From contig CBFGIT010000015.1 in the NCBI GenBank assembly GCA_965648905.1, positions 1 through 64,000 on the forward strand: DNA of 64,000 bases, in the 5' to 3' direction. The position numbers and the translations under genes were made by a program. A model generated the notes under the pieces. That model ran no database searches. It was not told the origin of the DNA and saw only the letters and a list, made by a program, of their open reading frames with translations. Of the stretch, positions 3,491-53,362 are shown in pieces (within the stretch, counting starts at the first letter, position 1; every line of letters begins with the position of its first letter). The DNA is from a candidate division WOR-3 bacterium. Lineage in GTDB: Bacteria; Hydrothermota; Tepidihabitantia; Tepidihabitantales; Tepidihabitantaceae.

Positions 3491-4207
3491 TTAGACCCGA
3501 CCGAGAATCCGCTGCAGCCGGAGCCGCAGAACAAGGAAGAACGCGCGCCGGACAATCCGCTTGTTCATCTTCGAAACACCGGCTCGACGTTCGGTAAACA
3601 CAATCGGAATCTCCTTGAGCCGGCCGCCTTTGCGCCAGATGAGGAAGTCAATCTCAATCTGGAACCCGTACCCGTCCTCTTTGAGCATGTTGAGGTCGAG
3701 CTTCCTGAGCATCTCGGCCCGGTATGCTTTGAACCCGGCGGTCAGGTCGCGTACCGGACAGCCGGTCACGCGCCGGGCATAGGCACAGGCAAAGTAGGAA
3801 AGCAGGAGTCGCTTCATCGGCCAGTTGACGATTGAGATGCCGTCTGAGTAGCGCGAGCCGATGACAAGGTCATAGTCGGCAAGCGCGGCAATCATCTCCG
3901 GAATCTTGTCGGGCGGGTGAGAGAAGTCCGAGTCCATCTCAAAGCAGTAGTCATAGCCATGTTCGAGGGTGTAGCGGAACCCGAGCACGTAAGCAGTGCC
4001 GAGGCCGAGCTTGCCCGGGCGGCGGATAAGTCGAATCCGCGGATTCGACTGCGCCATCTTCTCAACCAGGTCGCCGGTGTGGTCCGGCGAGTTGTCGTCA
4101 ACTACGAGCACATCCAGTTCGGGCGACTGCGCCAGTACGACCGGAATTATCCGTTCGATGTTCTCGGCTTCATTGTAGGTCGGCATGATGATGAGTCCGC
4201 GCGGCAC
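3491..4207 (-). CDS. polyprenol monophosphomannose synthase (DPM1-like GT2)
   Basis: IIMPTYNEAENI, VDDNSPD, GKLGLGTAY, MDSDFSH, GYGFQIE, FTERRAGVSKM. GTG start at 4207 chosen from promoter position. Confidence 0.92.
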   Translation of the reverse strand: MPRGLIIMPTYNEAENIERIIPVVLAQSPELDVLVVDDNSPDHTGDLVEKMAQSNPRIRLIRRPGKLGLGTAYVLGFRYTLEHGYDYCFEMDSDFSHPPDKIPEMIAALADYDLVIGSRYSDGISIVNWPMKRLLLSYFACAYARRVTGCPVRDLTAGFKAYRAEMLRKLDLNMLKEDGYGFQIEIDFLIWRKGGRLKEIPIVFTERRAGVSKMNKRIVRRAFFLVLRLRLQRILGRV

Positions 4208-4212
4208 GGCCA

Positions 4213-4241
4213 ATGATAAGGAATCGGCCCGCTGCTGTCAA
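4213..4241 (-). promoter_or_regulatory. sigma70-type promoter of the GT2 gene
   Basis: TTGACA-N17-TATCAT, 5 nt before the GTG. Confidence 0.6.
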
Positions 4242-4250
4242 ACCACGCTC

Positions 4251-4490
4251 TGCTGGGCTTCGGTTTCAGCACTGCCTTGAGTTGTGCTCTGAGCTTCGGC
4301 TTCAGGCTCGGTTTGATGCGCGAACCAAGGCTCGCTCGCCGAGCTGCAACTCTGCCTGGCTGAGCGTGTGCTGGTCAGCGTGGAGACTTGAGTGACCAGC
4401 GCTCCGGGACCTCTCCTGCAGGCGCGAATTGAGACTCAACCGAAAGCTGATCTATCGCCGCATCCGGCGGTTGAGGTGGTAGGGGGAGTG
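4251..4490. repeat. degenerate 12-bp-periodic intergenic array (phased YG)
   Basis: CG/TG at 4261+12n for 14 consecutive units (4261-4417); 18 of 20 units up to 4489. Confidence 0.8.
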
Positions 4491-4600
4491 ACTCCGGGAG
4501 TCGTTCCTGATGCCAAGGTCGAAGTCGGACTCAGAATGCGGGTTCGCAGTCCAAGCCCTTGGATGATAAATACTTAAGCCGAAGACAGCGGTGCGGCGGG

Positions 4601-5800
4601 CTAGTGCCTCAGGACCTGCTCGATGCGCTCAAGCGCCCAGTCGAGCTCGTCTTTGCGAATGACGAGCGGCGGGGCAAGACGGATGATTGTGCCGTGGGTC
4701 TCTTTGGCAAGCACGCCGAGCTGCCCCAGCCTCTCGCAGAACGGCCGGGCTGGGCCGGACTCGGGTTTGAGTTCTACGCCAATCAGCAGGCCTTTGCCGC
4801 GAATCTCGGCGACGTGCTTTGAGTTCATCTTCGTGAGCTGACTCTTGAGGTATTCGCCCATCTCAAGTGCATTCTCGGGCAGCTTCTCTTCAACGATGAC
4901 TTCAACCGCGGCCTTGCCCACAGCGCAGGCCAAGGGGTTGCCGCCAAAGGTCGAACCGTGGTTGCCCGGAACAAAAACGCTCATGATGTCCCTTGATGCC
5001 AGCGCACCCGAGACCGGGAAGCAGCCACCGCCCAGAGCCTTGCCGACGATGAGAACGTCCGGCTTGACGTTCTCGTAGTCGGCGCAGAACAGTCGGCCGG
5101 TGCGGCCGAAGCCGGTCTGGATTTCGTCGAGCATCAGCAGGATACCGCGTTCGCTGCAGACGCGACGTACCGCGGCAAGGTAGCCGGGCCGGGGGACCTT
5201 GATGCCGGCCTCGCCCTGAATCGGCTCAACGAGAAACGCCACGGTGTTGGAGGTGACTGCCTGTTCGAGTGCGGCGACGTCGTCGTAGGGGATCATCTTG
5301 AATCCCGGGCCATAAGGTCCGAACCCGTCCCGGTAAAGTTCCTCGGACGAGAACCCGACAATCGTTGTGGTCCGGCCGTGGAAGTTGCCGTTGCAGACGA
5401 CAATCTCGGCCCGGTCCTGCTCGACCCCTTTGTGTCTGTAGCCCCAGCGCCGGGCCGCCTTGATTGCGGTCTCGACCGCCTCGGCCCCGGTGTTCATGAG
5501 CAGGACCTGCTCTGTGCCGCATACTCTGGTCACGGTTTCGCAGAACGGCCCGAAAGTGTCATGATGGAATGCCCGCGAAGTCAGGCAGAGACGCGCCATC
5601 TGGTCGGTCATGGCCTTGAGCACCTTCGGATGGCGATGCCCCTGGTTCAGGGCCGAGTATGATGATAGCATGTCCATGTACCGGCGGCCCTCGACATCCC
5701 AGACCCAGACCCCTTCGCCCCGGCTGAGGACAATCGGCAGGGGTTCGTAGTTATGGGCGCTGTACTTCCGTGCTTGGTTGATGAAGTCGCTGCTGTTCAA
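4601..5800 (-). CDS. rocD: ornithine--oxo-acid transaminase
   Basis: SAHNYEPLP, YSALNQGHRHP, MNTGAEAVETAIKAARRWGY, EPIQGEAG, DEIQTG, GKALGGG, HGSTFGGNPL; TTG start after AAGGAG. Confidence 0.95.
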   Translation of the reverse strand: MNSSDFINQARKYSAHNYEPLPIVLSRGEGVWVWDVEGRRYMDMLSSYSALNQGHRHPKVLKAMTDQMARLCLTSRAFHHDTFGPFCETVTRVCGTEQVLLMNTGAEAVETAIKAARRWGYRHKGVEQDRAEIVVCNGNFHGRTTTIVGFSSEELYRDGFGPYGPGFKMIPYDDVAALEQAVTSNTVAFLVEPIQGEAGIKVPRPGYLAAVRRVCSERGILLMLDEIQTGFGRTGRLFCADYENVKPDVLIVGKALGGGCFPVSGALASRDIMSVFVPGNHGSTFGGNPLACAVGKAAVEVIVEEKLPENALEMGEYLKSQLTKMNSKHVAEIRGKGLLIGVELKPESGPARPFCERLGQLGVLAKETHGTIIRLAPPLVIRKDELDWALERIEQVLRH

Positions 5801-7490: not shown

Positions 7491-9875
7491 ATGATCGATA
7501 CGACCGTAACCGACAACCATCTGACAACGCTCCGTCGACAACTGGCCGCGGCGCGTGACCCGGCTGAGCGTCTGCCGCTGCTGCTCAGGCTCGGCGAGGC
7601 GCTGACGCTCAAGTACCCGGCTGAAGCCGAAGCTCTGCTGGTCGAGGCTTACGAGGCCGCGCTGGTCTGCAACGCTGAGAACGAAATCGGCCGGGCCTGC
7701 TGGTTTCTGTGTGAGTTGAAGCGCGGGGTCGGCGACATCGAGAATGCCCGATATTGGGTCGGACGGCTGGCCGACGTCGCACAGAAAATGAAGAGTGAGT
7801 TCCTGGAAGGGTACCACCACTACGCGCTGGGTGCAACCTGTTGGTCGGCCGGCGACTACGAGACCGCACAACTGAGCTACGAGCGTTGTCTGGAGACCTG
7901 GAAGAAGTGCGGGTATCGACTGGGCGAGATATCGGCCCTCAACGGTCTTGCCACGATTGCCGGTCAGCAGGGACGGCCGGCTGAGCAGCTTGAACTGCTG
8001 CAGGCGTGCGTGCTGATCGCCGAGGAAGTCAATGCCGAGCAGTGGCGACCGTGGCTTGCCTATCTTCTGGCCTGGCCTCTGCTCGAACTCGGTCGCTGGG
8101 AAGAGGCGTTCCAGACATTCTATCGCGCGCTCGCCATGAGCGAGCAGCGCGGCACGACCAGACTGATGAGCGAAGCATTCCTCGGACTTGGAGAGATTTT
8201 TCTGCACCGCAACATGCCGGGTCGGGCCCGGGCCATGTTCCGGCGGGCGATTGAGGCCGGGCAGAAACGCGAGACCTGGCCTGAGATGTACCGCAAAGCG
8301 CTTGTTGAGACTGGTCTCACGTTCCTGGCGCAGGGCAACCTGGCCGCGGCCTGGCAAGTGCTCGAGGAGGCCGAAGCCGCCTGTCGCCGGGTTGGGGTGA
8401 AGACCGAACTCGTCGCGGTACTGACCAGTCAGGCGGAAGTTGCGCTCGGTCGGGGTCTGGTTCGCCGTGCCGTTGAGCTGACACTCGAGGCCGAGACTTT
8501 CGCTCGTGAGGTCGCACTTCCGCTCGACATCGGCGAGGCGCTGCGCGTCAAGGCATTGGTGCTGGCTGCGAGCAATCGGCCGGATGAGGCGATTGCGGCG
8601 TTCGACGAAGCCCTGTCCTGGTTGCGTGATGCTCAAGAGAGCTACCGGCTTGCCCGAGTCGAGTTCGAGTTCGGACGGTTCCTGGCTGCCCGGCACGACG
8701 ATGCCGCTGCAGTTGAACACCTTCAGGCCGCGGTGCGCCTGCTGCGTGGTCTGGTCATGGTCGCAAATGCGGTTGAGAGCATCCGTCTGCTGATGGATAT
8801 TGAGCTTGTTCGCGGCTCGGGTGCGGCTCTTTTCAATGCCGTGTCGTCGCTGTCCACTCTGCGGTTACCGCCCGCTTTGCTGGTCAGCCACGCCTTATCG
8901 TTCATCTGCCGGGCAACCGGAGCCGACGCCGGCACAGTGTGGGCAGGCGAGAGGATAGCAGCGAGGTGGGAACGAGTTGGCCGCAGCACCGGTGCTCCGA
9001 CTCAGACCACGACCTACCCGGTATTCTTCGGCAGCACGCAGACCGGAACGGTCTGTCTTGAGCGCAGCCACCAACATGCTGAGGCTGCCGGCGTTGCGGT
9101 CGCCGGTGTGACCAGCATCATCGCCCTGCCGCTCCATCGACTCGCGACGTCGGCTCCGCCAAAGTCGCCGCATGGACTGCACATGTCCGGCGTTGCCGGC
9201 CCGGCTCCCGCCTATCAGGCACTTCTCGCGGCGGCTGCCCGGTTGGCGCGCACCGACACACCGTTACTGATTACCGGCGAGCGAGCGACTGGTCGGCGGT
9301 TCATCGCACGGGTAGTGCATGACTCGAGTGAACGTGCCGGCCGACCATTCGTTGTGGTCTGCTGCGGTGGCGTGCCTGATGACCTGTTGGCCGATGAGTT
9401 GTTCGGCCACGAGGCCGACCCCGGTGCTGGTATCGACGCCCGACCCGGCCGGCTGTCGAGTGCGGAACGCGGTACACTCGTGTTGTACGAACTGGGTGCG
9501 GGCTCCGGGCTTCGGTCGCGGCTTACTGAAGTTGTGCGGACCGGTGTTCCGGACATAAGGCTCGTTGTGATACCGCAGAACCCGGCCTGTGGCAGCGAAC
9601 TCTCTGACCTTTGTTGCTGGGCCACTCTCGCAGTGCCGTCCCTGCGCGAACGGCGCGAGGATATCCCGGGACTGGCGCAGTACTTCCTTGAAGCAGTGGC
9701 GAACGAGTTCATCCGCAATGTTGCCGGTCTGTCTCCTGATGCGATCGCACGCCTTGAGTCCTACGACTGGCCGGGCAACGTCCGGGAACTTCAACAGGCG
9801 ATTGAGCGGGCGGTGATGTTGGCTGAAGACCGCATCGCCGATGTCGCTCATCTTCCGCCTGAACTCCGCGGCTGA
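7491..9875 (+). CDS. TPR-repeat protein fused to a degenerate sigma-54 interaction (bEBP AAA+) domain
   Basis: About 450 aa of TPR-like helices, then LLITGERATGR, PFVVVCC, ELFGHE, PSLRERREDI, YDWPGNVREL. Upstream TTGACA-N16-TAGCAT. Confidence 0.85.
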   Translation: MIDTTVTDNHLTTLRRQLAAARDPAERLPLLLRLGEALTLKYPAEAEALLVEAYEAALVCNAENEIGRACWFLCELKRGVGDIENARYWVGRLADVAQKMKSEFLEGYHHYALGATCWSAGDYETAQLSYERCLETWKKCGYRLGEISALNGLATIAGQQGRPAEQLELLQACVLIAEEVNAEQWRPWLAYLLAWPLLELGRWEEAFQTFYRALAMSEQRGTTRLMSEAFLGLGEIFLHRNMPGRARAMFRRAIEAGQKRETWPEMYRKALVETGLTFLAQGNLAAAWQVLEEAEAACRRVGVKTELVAVLTSQAEVALGRGLVRRAVELTLEAETFAREVALPLDIGEALRVKALVLAASNRPDEAIAAFDEALSWLRDAQESYRLARVEFEFGRFLAARHDDAAAVEHLQAAVRLLRGLVMVANAVESIRLLMDIELVRGSGAALFNAVSSLSTLRLPPALLVSHALSFICRATGADAGTVWAGERIAARWERVGRSTGAPTQTTTYPVFFGSTQTGTVCLERSHQHAEAAGVAVAGVTSIIALPLHRLATSAPPKSPHGLHMSGVAGPAPAYQALLAAAARLARTDTPLLITGERATGRRFIARVVHDSSERAGRPFVVVCCGGVPDDLLADELFGHEADPGAGIDARPGRLSSAERGTLVLYELGAGSGLRSRLTEVVRTGVPDIRLVVIPQNPACGSELSDLCCWATLAVPSLRERREDIPGLAQYFLEAVANEFIRNVAGLSPDAIARLESYDWPGNVRELQQAIERAVMLAEDRIADVAHLPPELRG

Positions 9876-37876: not shown

Positions 37877-39144
37877 GCGGGCGCATTCTGCTTGTCGGGG
37901 TTGCCCGATCGGGACAGTCACGCTGGGCCAGAGCCGACGCGCTGCAGGAACTGGCCGAACTGACCAAGACCGCGGGCGGCGAGGTGGTCGAACGCCTGAT
38001 ACAGGTGCGTCCTAGTCCTGACCCGGCAACGTTTGTCGGCCGAGGAATGGTCGAGCGTCTGACGCATCTCTGCCGCCAACACCGCGTCGACCTGCTGATA
38101 TTCGATGATGAACTGAGTCCGACCCAGCAACGCAATCTCGAACAGGCGCTGCGCGTCCGCGTGATTGACCGCGCCGCACTGATTCTCGACATATTCGCCC
38201 TTCACGCACGCACCGCTGAAGCCAAGATACAGGTTGAGCTCGCACAACTTGAGTATCGTCGTCCCAGGCTTGGAGGGCTGGGTATTGAGATGTCGCGGCT
38301 TGGCGGTGGCATCGGCACGCGCGGACCAGGGGAAACCCAGCTCGAAGTTGACCGGCGTCGAATCGACCAGCGAATCGGAATACTGCGCCGAGCCCTGGCG
38401 CGTATTGAACGAGAACGCATCACGCAGCGCGGCCGTCGTGCGGGTGTGTTCGGAGTTGCTCTGACCGGTTACACCAACGCCGGCAAGTCCACACTGCTTA
38501 ACCGCCTGGCCGGTGCGAGCGTCAGGGTATCGGACCAGATGTTCGCCACGCTTGATGCCAACACCAAAGCGGTTCAACTTGCGCGCAACGTGGAGGTCCT
38601 GGTCACGGACACGGTCGGGTTCATCCGAGACCTGCCGCCCCAGTTAGTGGCCAGCTTTCGTTCGACGCTGTCCGGCATCCGGGAGGCCGACCTCGTGCTT
38701 CATGTTGTTGATGCTGGCGACGAGCAGGTTGACCGCAGAGTGGATGTGGTCAACGATACGCTTGCCGAGGTGGGTGCTCAGGACAAAGCGGTCATGATGG
38801 TATTCTCCAAAGTCGACCGGGTCTGCGACCACACGGTACTCAGGCGTCTACGGCGTGACTTCGCTGGCGCGCTGTTTGTCTCAGGCCTGACCGGTTTCGG
38901 GATTGACCGGCTGAAAGCAGCCCTGCTGCGTCAAGTCGAGCAGGGGATGGTAACACGCGTTTTCACAATCCCCAATGCTTGCCCTAGGCTGCTGAGTCTT
39001 GTTCGGGACGCGGGCCGCGTCTTGAGTGAACAGCAGCTCGTCGGTCGAACGCGCTTGCGTGTGATCGGTTCGATACCGGCCCTCGCTCGTGTGCGTAAGG
39101 CGCTGGATTCGGTCACGCGTGAGCGAGTACCGACTGAGCGCTGA
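37873..39144 (+). CDS. hflX: GTPase HflX (probable CTG start)
   Basis: ELAELTKTAG, GGGIGTRGPGETQLE, GYTNAGKST, FATLD, DTVGFI. Confidence 0.95.
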   Translation: MSGRILLVGVARSGQSRWARADALQELAELTKTAGGEVVERLIQVRPSPDPATFVGRGMVERLTHLCRQHRVDLLIFDDELSPTQQRNLEQALRVRVIDRAALILDIFALHARTAEAKIQVELAQLEYRRPRLGGLGIEMSRLGGGIGTRGPGETQLEVDRRRIDQRIGILRRALARIERERITQRGRRAGVFGVALTGYTNAGKSTLLNRLAGASVRVSDQMFATLDANTKAVQLARNVEVLVTDTVGFIRDLPPQLVASFRSTLSGIREADLVLHVVDAGDEQVDRRVDVVNDTLAEVGAQDKAVMMVFSKVDRVCDHTVLRRLRRDFAGALFVSGLTGFGIDRLKAALLRQVEQGMVTRVFTIPNACPRLLSLVRDAGRVLSEQQLVGRTRLRVIGSIPALARVRKALDSVTRERVPTER

Positions 39145-47576: not shown

Positions 47577-48970
47577 ACCGTCCGACGCGCAATGCGCTCC
47601 TGCTTTTCTCAGGCGAGGCGGTATCGCGGCTCTTCGGCTTCCTGTCCGCCACGATTCTGGCGCGCCGGCTCGGCGTGGACGGATTCGGCCAAGTTGGCTT
47701 CGCATCAGCGGTCTTCATGTACGGGGTCATCCTCACCGACTTCGGACTGCTGACCGTAGGCACGAGGTCCGTGGCCAGCAACCCTGAGACTGCTTCTGAG
47801 CTCGTCGGCCGGCTTGTGCCGCTCCGGCTGGTTCTGGGACTTGCGGCTGCTGCGTTCATCGCTGTCTTGGCCATCGTTCTGCCCCGGCCGGTCGAGGTGC
47901 GGCTGCTGCTTGTGGTCTACGCGTCGGGCACGGCCGTACAGGCATTGCTGCTGGAGTGGTTTTTCTTCGGAGTCGAGCAGATGGGTGCGGTCTCGTCGGC
48001 ACGCATTCTCACGCATCTGTCGTATTACGGCCTGGTCCTGTTGCTCGTGCGCGGCCCACAGGGCATTCTGATGGTACCGCTTGCCTTCATCGGTAGCACG
48101 CTGCTCGCGGTGCTGCTGCTGCTTGCGCTGTACCGCCGACGGTTCGGCGACATTCAACTGCGGCTCGCCCTCGGAGGATGGGGGGGACTGGTTCGGCAGG
48201 CGTGGCCGGTCGGTGCCGCGGGTGTCTTCACTCAGTTGCACGTGAACTTCGGACTGGTCGGGCTTGGGCTCTTTCGCACCGACGCGGAAACCGGCCTCTA
48301 CTCATCGGCGTACCGGCTCGTTTTCTTTCTGCTTGCTCTTGACAGAGTCTTCTATACGGTCTTCTTTCCAGTGGCTAGTCGCATCCAAGCCAGCCGCCCG
48401 GAACGGCTTCCTGAACTGACCGGAACGGTACTGAGACTGATACTGGTTGTTTCGCTGCCCTTGGGCACCGGGCTTGTCGTGCTTGCCCGGCCGATTCTCG
48501 CCGCGGTCTTCGGTCCGGACTACATCGAAGCAGCGCCGGCTCTTCAGACCATGGCCGTGTTTCTGCCCGTCAGCATGCTCAGCAGCATGACCGGCCACAC
48601 GCTCATTGCTGCAGGCAGGGAGAGACGGTTCCTGCGTAATGTGCTGTTCGGCACGCTTGTCTCGATTGCCGCCGGCCTCGTTGGCATTGCCCTGCTGGGC
48701 GTGCGCGGCGCAGCAATGGCGGTAGTCGCCGGAGAGACAGCGATTCTTGTCCCAATGTTTGTGGATTTCCTGCGCCTCGTGCATCCACGCATGGACCGGC
48801 GTCTTGCCGCGGCGCCGGTCGCATCCGCCGCGCTGGTCCCGGTCTGTCTGCTGCTGGGTCGGTTTGGGCTCGCGGTTCCGATACTGGTCGGCGCCGGGGT
48901 CTACGCTGTTCTGCTCTTTGCGCTCGGTGGGGTCACGTTGAGAGAACTGGGTATGGTGCGGGCCGGATGA
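47573..48970 (+). CDS. polysaccharide flippase (Wzx/PST family)
   Basis: About 12-14 TM helices, LARRLGVDGFG, TDFGL, GLYSSAYR. Confidence 0.88.
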   Translation: MNRPTRNALLLFSGEAVSRLFGFLSATILARRLGVDGFGQVGFASAVFMYGVILTDFGLLTVGTRSVASNPETASELVGRLVPLRLVLGLAAAAFIAVLAIVLPRPVEVRLLLVVYASGTAVQALLLEWFFFGVEQMGAVSSARILTHLSYYGLVLLLVRGPQGILMVPLAFIGSTLLAVLLLLALYRRRFGDIQLRLALGGWGGLVRQAWPVGAAGVFTQLHVNFGLVGLGLFRTDAETGLYSSAYRLVFFLLALDRVFYTVFFPVASRIQASRPERLPELTGTVLRLILVVSLPLGTGLVVLARPILAAVFGPDYIEAAPALQTMAVFLPVSMLSSMTGHTLIAAGRERRFLRNVLFGTLVSIAAGLVGIALLGVRGAAMAVVAGETAILVPMFVDFLRLVHPRMDRRLAAAPVASAALVPVCLLLGRFGLAVPILVGAGVYAVLLFALGGVTLRELGMVRAG

Positions 48971-52880: not shown

Positions 52881-53246
52881 CTACTTCACGTTTATCAGCC
52901 CGAAGCGCAGGAACTTCATCACGTCCTCGTCGAGGCCGCGCACCTTCCACTTGGCGATGAGCGCATCGGTCTCGTTCTTCAACACCTTGCCGGTGTAGAT
53001 GTTGGACTTCTTCCACAACTCGCGGCAGTAGTTCAGGTAGCTGACATACAGGGCCGAGGGGATACCTGAGTTGTCGATTGCCTCCTTGGCCTGTAGTTCA
53101 AAGTTCGCCAGCTCGGTCTGACGCGCCTGATGCCGGGCCAGAGCATACTCGCGCACGTCATCGCTGGTCTGCTTTGTCCGCTCCGGCTTGGTCTTGGTTG
53201 CGTACTTGAACTGCCGGTCGATGTTGTCTCTGATTCTTCCGGGCAT
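52881..53246 (-). CDS. 121-aa basic alpha-helical protein, candidate SIRV2-fold (Adnaviria) major-capsid-protein homolog
   Basis: GAAAGGA RBS, own promoter, GC3-rich codons; R-x4-R-x2-K-Y-x2-K, GI-x7-Y-x2-Y and TG-x2-L-x-N-x4-L motifs. The CDS is well supported; the fold assignment is inference. Confidence 0.7.
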   Translation of the reverse strand: MPGRIRDNIDRQFKYATKTKPERTKQTSDDVREYALARHQARQTELANFELQAKEAIDNSGIPSALYVSYLNYCRELWKKSNIYTGKVLKNETDALIAKWKVRGLDEDVMKFLRFGLINVK

Positions 53247-53362
53247 TGTTCTGTCCTTTCTGCTGCCTCTGCGGCCTGGCGGCTGCAGGTCCGGCTGAAC
53301 GCGGACACGCCCGACGTTCGCAGCGCGCGAGCCACGCACGCACAGCCGAAGCAGCCACGAAG

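Follow-up and report, generated by a model that had tools for sequence, protein, structure and literature searches.

Several families of short bacterial DNA elements resemble parts of the sequence analysed here. The BOX elements of pneumococci are modular interspersed repeats with the layout boxA-(boxB)n-boxC, and MITEs are a likewise comparable class. REP/BIME elements are mobilised by RAYT (Y1) transposases. Bacterial interspersed repeats are normally spotted by sequence similarity; in the family described below similarity is near background, and what is kept is a 12-nt register (in 42 of 45 copies, over ~200 nt).

Two further systems rely on regularly spaced sites. The centromere-like tubC/TubR iteron array extends over a few hundred bp of short regular sites that are bound cooperatively by many copies of one protein, and it can overlap a promoter (PMC6009700). 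According to Nadiras et al. 2018, Rho sites are characterised by (YC)N9-13 repeats and C>G bubbles, with adjacent subunit clefts spanned by 12-13 nt; in the same paper, G-rich motifs are negative descriptors (PMC6144790).

The phased tract and its surroundings

The locus lies in a 64-kb window, meaning the whole stretch of 64,000 nucleotides analysed. A 387-bp spacer separates two minus-strand genes, one for a glycosyltransferase (GT2) and one for an aminotransferase (rocD). Written in rows of 12 from position 4261, the spacer has CG or TG at the head of 14 consecutive rows (4261-4417). The rows that follow begin with TT (4429), CG (4441), TA (4453), CG (4465), TG (4477) and TG (4489), for a total of 18 of 20 units headed by CG or TG between 4261 and 4489. 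Phased TCA/TGA is visible as well, at 4266, 4278, 4290, 4302 and 4314. An initial annotation, made from the letters alone, had listed the 14-unit phase, the later units with the TA at 4453 and the phased TCA/TGA, and the rows bear out each of these.

The periodicity is far beyond chance. The probability of CG or TG is 0.174 in the window, and no period from 3 to 40 has a longer run than the 14 units at period 12, the other periods reaching 5-11. In 300 simulated first-order Markov sequences of 64 kb each, the longest period-12 run had a mean of 6.05 and a maximum of 9. The window holds no other period-12 CG/TG run of at least 8 units, and the next best period-12 stretches, at 48432 and 54527, both overlap long ORFs. 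Tandem Repeats Finder reports no repeat for the tract because its 12-nt units are unlike one another. Runs at other periods are also present: 11 in-phase CG/TG units at period 15 begin at 9275, within a TPR / sigma-54-activator ORF (7491-9875), and 10 at period 11 begin at 37997.

The tract is confirmed as real and is the 5' arm of a ~340-bp intergenic repeat occupying window positions 4255-4590. That this segment is a copy of a constrained, dispersed, non-coding repeat family is highly probable. The features of the locus are as follows.

4255..4590, plus strand (the YG strand): whole copy of the repeat element; nhmmer match to positions 8-342 of the family HMM (E=1e-70), aligning with 16 other copies
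4261..4476, plus strand: phased array, 18 modules long at 12 nt each, with CG or TG at the head of 16, as seen in rows of 12; the family module profile is Y(0.94) G(0.84) S H N N C N N R M C (765 units)
4477..4512, plus strand: conserved imperfect palindrome module (GGGGGAGTGACTCC GGG AGTCGTTCC) in the register of the array, its first two rows headed by TG; found in all 45 copies, with a hairpin fold in the window copy
4513..4590, plus strand: 3' tail with ..CGAAG.CGGACTC.GAATGCG.. and a second short inverted repeat (CTAAG...CTTAG in most copies), from the 16-copy alignment; HMM columns 265-340
4213..4241, minus strand: sigma-70-like GT2 promoter (TTGACA, 17 nt, TATCAT), outside the element and 14 bp from its 5' edge; conserved in the congener
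3491..4213, minus strand: neighbouring family-2 glycosyltransferase gene (Pfam PF00535, E=5.7e-33)
4601..5800, minus strand: neighbouring class-III aminotransferase gene, rocD-like, its stop codon 11 bp from the 3' edge of the element (Pfam PF00202, E=1.5e-128)

The tract had been described as abutting the -35 box of the GT2 promoter, a description that holds with a gap of 14 bp. This minus-strand promoter consists of TTGACA (4241-4236), a 17-nt spacer and TATCAT (4218-4213), and agrees with the consensus at 11 of 12 positions. TTGAC is invariant in nine of nine aligned upstream regions of GT2 relatives, and the sequence upstream of TTGAC differs throughout. The window copy fills the space from the rocD stop to this conserved promoter, and its palindrome probably doubles as the rocD terminator. 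The rocD-GT2 spacer can be annotated as an inserted repeat plus a conserved promoter, with no hidden gene. As a separate observation on the GT2 gene (4186-4241), the conserved -10 box TATCAT ends 5 nt ahead of a GTG, and three relatives have CTT, TTC or TTG in place of the ATG at 4188; the gene is probably leaderless.

Copies, anatomy and constraint

When the spacer is compared by BLAST with its own 3.0-Mb genome, only the GC-rich palindrome at 4477-4515 recurs elsewhere. A genome-wide search for phase on either strand gives a different picture: period 12 stands out, with 12 places carrying in-phase YG runs of 12-21 units. Eight of the 12 end in the same palindrome in the same register and align with one another, and an HMM built from these eight places detects, with nhmmer, 17 copies of ~340 bp in the source genome. 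Its one congeneric genome, a fragmented assembly, was searched with a sequence-only covariance model of the 3' module alone, not of the array, after which flanks were fetched; 28 copies were kept. The tract had initially been taken as a site particular to the GT2-rocD spacer; it is instead one of 17 dispersed copies in its genome, with 28 in the congener. The 45 copies come from the only two genomes that carry the family, and related copies among them are not fully independent. Subfamilies at 72-89% identity exist. Several copies in the congener lie within a few hundred bases of contig ends (C42:331, C31:338, C55:1, C19:32555, C167:4150), which suggests that the repeats break this assembly.

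Among the genomes searched, the repeat family was found only in this genus. By the 3'-module model the element is multi-copy in two of 41 related genomes; six of the 39 others give weak single matches, which are palindrome-only where examined. At two loci in one genome (G019), YG starts 2 of the 24 rows before the palindrome. An exact pattern for the palindrome variant finds 20 stretches among one genome per species, 19 of them in the assembly of the congener. The remaining match belongs to an unrelated MAG, where a plain hairpin follows a gene and no array accompanies it. Searches of open-access text on 12-nt or 12-bp periodicity revealed no description of such elements.

Other repeats were seen in the source genome and in a related one. 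A second dispersed mini-repeat occupies at least 11 loci of the source genome (e.g. C3:53410, C5:57908, C18:1466, C29:7332) and has the palindrome GGGAACCGTTCCCC with conserved flanks. Two paralogous arrays, C12:19351-19640 and C10:533-830, have a 24-nt period (TGGTSSCAGGAY TGTTRCGNRGAC) with 16 in-phase YG units and are not members of the 12-nt family. A Shine-Dalgarno-like AGGAGG and an ATG follow ~90 nt after the end of each; with three frames open, the arrays may encode a proline-rich repeat protein on the other strand. In G019, contigs C44 and C43 carry paralogous genes for Kelch-like secreted proteins (L039 and L043) at 79% identity over 1.4 kb. Some 350 nt of 3' non-coding DNA fall within this similarity and stop exactly at the palindrome motif of the 12-nt family (TGGCAGGGGGAGTGACTCCCCCAC); no 12-nt array is present.

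Each copy of the 12-nt family has the same layout: ~18-21 YG-headed modules of 12 nt, then the imperfect palindrome in register, then a tail of ~90 nt. Arrays have a median of 18 in-phase rows and a maximum of 23, and YG heads 586 of 668 rows. The consensus of the palindrome module is TGGCAGGGGGAG CGACTCCC..AG TCGCTCCC, and the tail then carries the second short inverted repeat. Over 765 units, the module has C (0.48) or T (0.46) at position 1, G (0.84) at position 2, C or G at position 3, rarely G at position 4, C (0.53) at position 7, A or G (0.79) at position 10 and C (0.65) at position 12.

What the copies share is phase. With rows anchored on the palindrome, in-phase YG has a frequency of 0.69-0.93 in rows -16 to +1, against 0.06-0.15 at the other phases. 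At least 11 of 16 in-phase positions are YG in 42 of 45 copies (17 of 17 in the source genome and 25 of 28 in the congener), for which the chance per copy is 8e-6. Array identity between copies has a median of only 0.38 over 990 pairs. Identity among the units of one copy (0.33) hardly differs from that of random units (0.326), and the array is therefore not a recent tandem duplication. Differences in length are mostly of whole modules (+24 in four copies and +36 in two, with +51 and -2 as exceptions), and the register is kept across ~200 nt in nearly all copies.

Comparison of 11 independent related pairs identifies the constrained positions. Position 2 changes least, at 18 of 176 sites against 32-59 elsewhere, and position 1 changes between C and T in 31 of 32 cases. 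Both members retain YG in 146 rows, and one member has lost it in 19. Purifying selection acts on the dinucleotide YG and on the 12-nt spacing. Within the array, selection maintains a pyrimidine followed by G at the head of every module, less strict preferences at the positions next to them and the 12-nt period, and the rest drifts.

A period of 12 equals four codons, and a missed or decayed protein-coding repeat with a four-residue period would be one source of such a pattern; a compositional accident would be another. Single copies do have open frames, including one through the whole C25 copy, and two frames contain fewer stops than shuffles (72 against 112 and 62 against 102). However, the stop-free copies in the six frames number 7, 20, 8, 13, 12 and 16 of 45, leaving no frame stop-free in more than 20 copies, and CGA and TGA alternate at a YG position inside the most conserved module. 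The limit to C or T at position 1, beside an invariant G, is unexplained by any wobble position, and a decaying pseudogene would not retain YG in 146 of 165 rows. Pfam gives no match for the four ORFs over the window tract. A conserved translated ORF had been named at the outset as the finding that would explain the tract away; six-frame reading, stop counts and Pfam reveal none. Chance is excluded both by the simulated runs and by the probability per copy. Either source, coding or compositional, is very improbable.

Gene context and turnover

The 17 copies in the source genome all lie between genes, as defined by retained ORFs; under cruder heuristic gene calls, 10 of the 45 copies are overlapped for >90 nt by a gene-like ORF. 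The orientation of neighbours likewise comes from heuristic calls that use ORF length and GC3 only. On this basis the upstream neighbour is co-oriented with 23 copies and divergent from 19, and the downstream neighbour is co-oriented with 22 and convergent with 17. All four arrangements of neighbours occur, and nine of the 37 copies with two called neighbours are between divergent genes. In the source genome, eight copies begin within ~60 nt of the stop codon of a co-oriented gene. The neighbouring genes are mutually unrelated; from translations read by eye, we take them to include genes for secreted proteins and an outer-membrane receptor, carB, a leuC-like gene and gcvT.

The positions of copies are not conserved. 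No copy lies beside the congener's orthologues of rocD, gcvT, ksgA or leuC; for pccB the flank extends over 154 nt only. In the congener rocD sits elsewhere, with no adjoining copy, and the contig bearing GT2 ends 55 nt beyond the promoter, those 55 nt being without similarity. The orthologous spacer had been put forward as the place to ask whether phase is conserved as sequence diverges; no copy occurs in the 80 metagenome loci fetched with GT2 relatives (43-89% identity), and rocD does not adjoin GT2 in any of the 16 closest metagenome loci examined. One pair of copies, C7:107958 in the source genome and C11:23436 in the congener, are candidate positional orthologues, and some copies may be old and fixed rather than mobile.

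Turnover between the congeners, the subfamilies at 72-89% identity and the differing copy numbers (17 and 28) suggest mobility, and the element would behave like a non-autonomous mobile element. Against this reading, most copies are far more diverged than typical MITE copies, and no terminal inverted repeats, target-site duplications or autonomous partner are evident in the alignments inspected. Those alignments covered a young subfamily with its flanks and eight copies; no filled site could be paired in alignment with an empty one. The nhmmer matches include no longer element with the same ends, the neighbours being housekeeping or secreted genes, and the analysis found no candidate reader protein or transposase partner. 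Both genomes that carry the element have a single-copy gene for a RAYT-type transposase (C3:109583-109918 in the source genome). A link to it was rejected: the nearest palindrome motif on the RAYT contig is at 53410, and no similar inverted repeat surrounds the gene.

A different use of dispersed copies would be as host chromosome-organising sites, at which a nucleoid, segregation or translocase protein loads or nucleates, much as at centromere-like iteron arrays, rather than as selfish cis-sites. Phase is retained even in the most diverged copies, which requires every locus to be under selection and is more readily explained if the host benefits. The absence of orientation bias to genes agrees with such a role, and arrays of short direct repeats coated by a small protein into filaments or rings have a precedent in tubC/TubR (PMC6009700). 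A host system should nonetheless have a longer history and a wider distribution. The element is multi-copy in only two of 41 related genomes, and the exact-pattern scan of species representatives places 19 of its 20 stretches in a single other assembly; moreover, the gene flanks of the copies differ in the congener and the copy number differs, 17 against 28. On this evidence the host-site explanation is unlikely.

Distribution also bears on the protein first proposed as the partner of the array. In the initial annotation the array would be a trans-acting site for a small protein, thought capsid-like, encoded at 52881-53246. The only point in its favour is the phased, non-coding nature of the tract. 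The ORF there (52881-53339, minus strand, 152 residues) has no Pfam match; its family has several members in every one of the 41 related genomes (eight matches in its own genome), whereas the element is multi-copy in two of 41. No copy of the element lies nearby, the sole nhmmer match on the contig being 4255-4590. The proposed binding link finds no support in these distributions and is hardly credible. Several relatives of this ORF contain an in-frame TGA. The broader idea of a trans-acting site fares better: the tract is still best regarded as a non-coding site that is read in trans, although it is not specific to the GT2-rocD locus.

Readings of the array and relation to known systems

Folding offers little sign of a structured RNA. 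The window copy has folding z-scores of -1.58 and -1.50 on the two strands, no better than shuffles, and the arrays of the 45 copies have mean z-scores of -0.21 and -0.36 on the two strands under column shuffles that keep the composition of each phase. RNAalifold predicts only four pairs in the 3' module, with no covariation term, and the strand on which mismatches in the palindrome would be G-U pairs varies from copy to copy. Rfam 15 has no match to the window copy at E up to 10 or to 16 other copies at E up to 1. A structured RNA gene was rejected on the strength of these folding and Rfam results. The copies show no orientation bias and neither a conserved promoter nor a conserved fold, which speaks for a DNA-level element and against an RNA gene. 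A reading of the CG/TG equivalence through 5-methyl-C was also considered and fails because neither carrier genome has a cytosine-5 methylase gene (PF00145 in 0 of 2, against 9 of 14 control genomes).

The main rival acts through RNA without requiring a fold. The element might be a portable Rho-type terminator, in which the transcript of the YG strand provides a loading site for the Rho hexamer, followed by a hairpin for pausing or termination. The RNA would be C-rich, G-poor and unstructured over ~220 nt, with a pyrimidine-C dimer recurring at 12-nt intervals. C makes up 0.371 and G 0.282 of the array's YG strand, and positions 11-12 and 1 are C-rich, so that YC dimers recur at 12 nt. The array has no fold beyond shuffles, and the eight copies that begin shortly after a co-oriented stop codon also count in its favour. 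On the other hand, conservation is strongest at a G, a base dispensable in Rho sites, and a hexamer needs six sites rather than 18-21. Nor is there an orientation bias (23 copies co-oriented and 19 divergent upstream), nine of 37 copies lie between divergent genes, and the genes next to the window copy would transcribe the other strand. A Rho-type terminator is an improbable account of the family.

The preferred explanation is a mobile non-coding repeat whose array serves as a phase-coded platform for an oligomeric protein and is read on DNA; as a whole, it falls only a little short of an even chance. The strict register implies a reader with a 12-nt step. Such a protein would nucleate on the palindrome and make contact with one YG in every 12 nt of double- or single-stranded DNA, helping the element to propagate or maintain itself. 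The strands are asymmetric (YG, and never YA or CA on that strand), which counts against duplex DNA as the substrate and fits single-stranded RNA or ssDNA more naturally. We infer a DNA-level oligomer mechanism for the array tentatively. A more specific version is rather doubtful: the information would lie in the register and not in the sequence, as ~20 YG steps set 12 nt apart, anchored on the palindrome and read by a filament- or ring-forming protein that steps 12 nt. A hexameric motor or loader moving along one strand, with 2 nt per subunit, would exemplify such a reader.

Survival of the register is direct evidence of selection on spacing, and points to an as yet unnamed reader that advances by 12 nt. 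If the proposal is true, a register-read repeat would be a previously undescribed kind of bacterial interspersed repeat, with a new mechanism of mobilisation or chromosome loading; finding the reader would define a new route by which short DNA elements are mobilised or, alternatively, a new type of loading site on the chromosome. Elements that keep only phase escape tandem-repeat finders, BLAST and Rfam, and similar families may be common and unseen.

Comparison with described systems places the element near several of them. It matches no Rfam 15 structured RNA; it lacks the frame open across copies of a gene for a four-residue repeat protein, and the shared unit and adjacent binder gene of an iteron. 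Like Rho utilisation sites (PMC6144790), the YG strand has C over G, is C-rich, G-poor and unstructured, and has pyrimidine-C dimers spaced ~12 nt apart. Unlike them, it has an invariant G, three times the units of a hexamer and no orientation bias to transcription, and it is not consistently the transcribed strand downstream of a gene.

The likeness to tubC/TubR is a few-hundred-bp array of short, regularly spaced sites, for which cooperative reading is here proposed. Arrays of the tubC/TubR type lie beside their own partition genes, have recognisable repeats and are single loci (PMC6009700); the present family, in contrast, comprises 17-28 dispersed arrays per genome with no partner gene beside them, and its units resemble one another only as much as random units do.

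As in REP/BIME elements, a GC-rich imperfect palindrome is dispersed in intergenic DNA, and a RAYT-like gene is present in both carrier genomes. The element is, however, ten times longer than a REP, its palindrome is not beside the RAYT gene, and GTAG precedes the palindrome core in only two of the 17 copies in the source genome. RAYT genes also occur in seven other related genomes in which the element was not found multi-copy.

The description of a MITE fits in being under 600 bp (~340 bp), non-coding and dispersed (17 + 28 copies), and departs from it in the related autonomous transposase element, which is absent from the nhmmer matches. With BOX elements and MITEs the family shares that it is short, non-coding, intergenic, multi-copy, found in either orientation and lineage-restricted, and that its internal module number varies, with length differences of whole modules. 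It differs from both in what its modules have in common, which is only YG and a weak profile: arrays are 38% alike, and the register is kept over ~200 nt.
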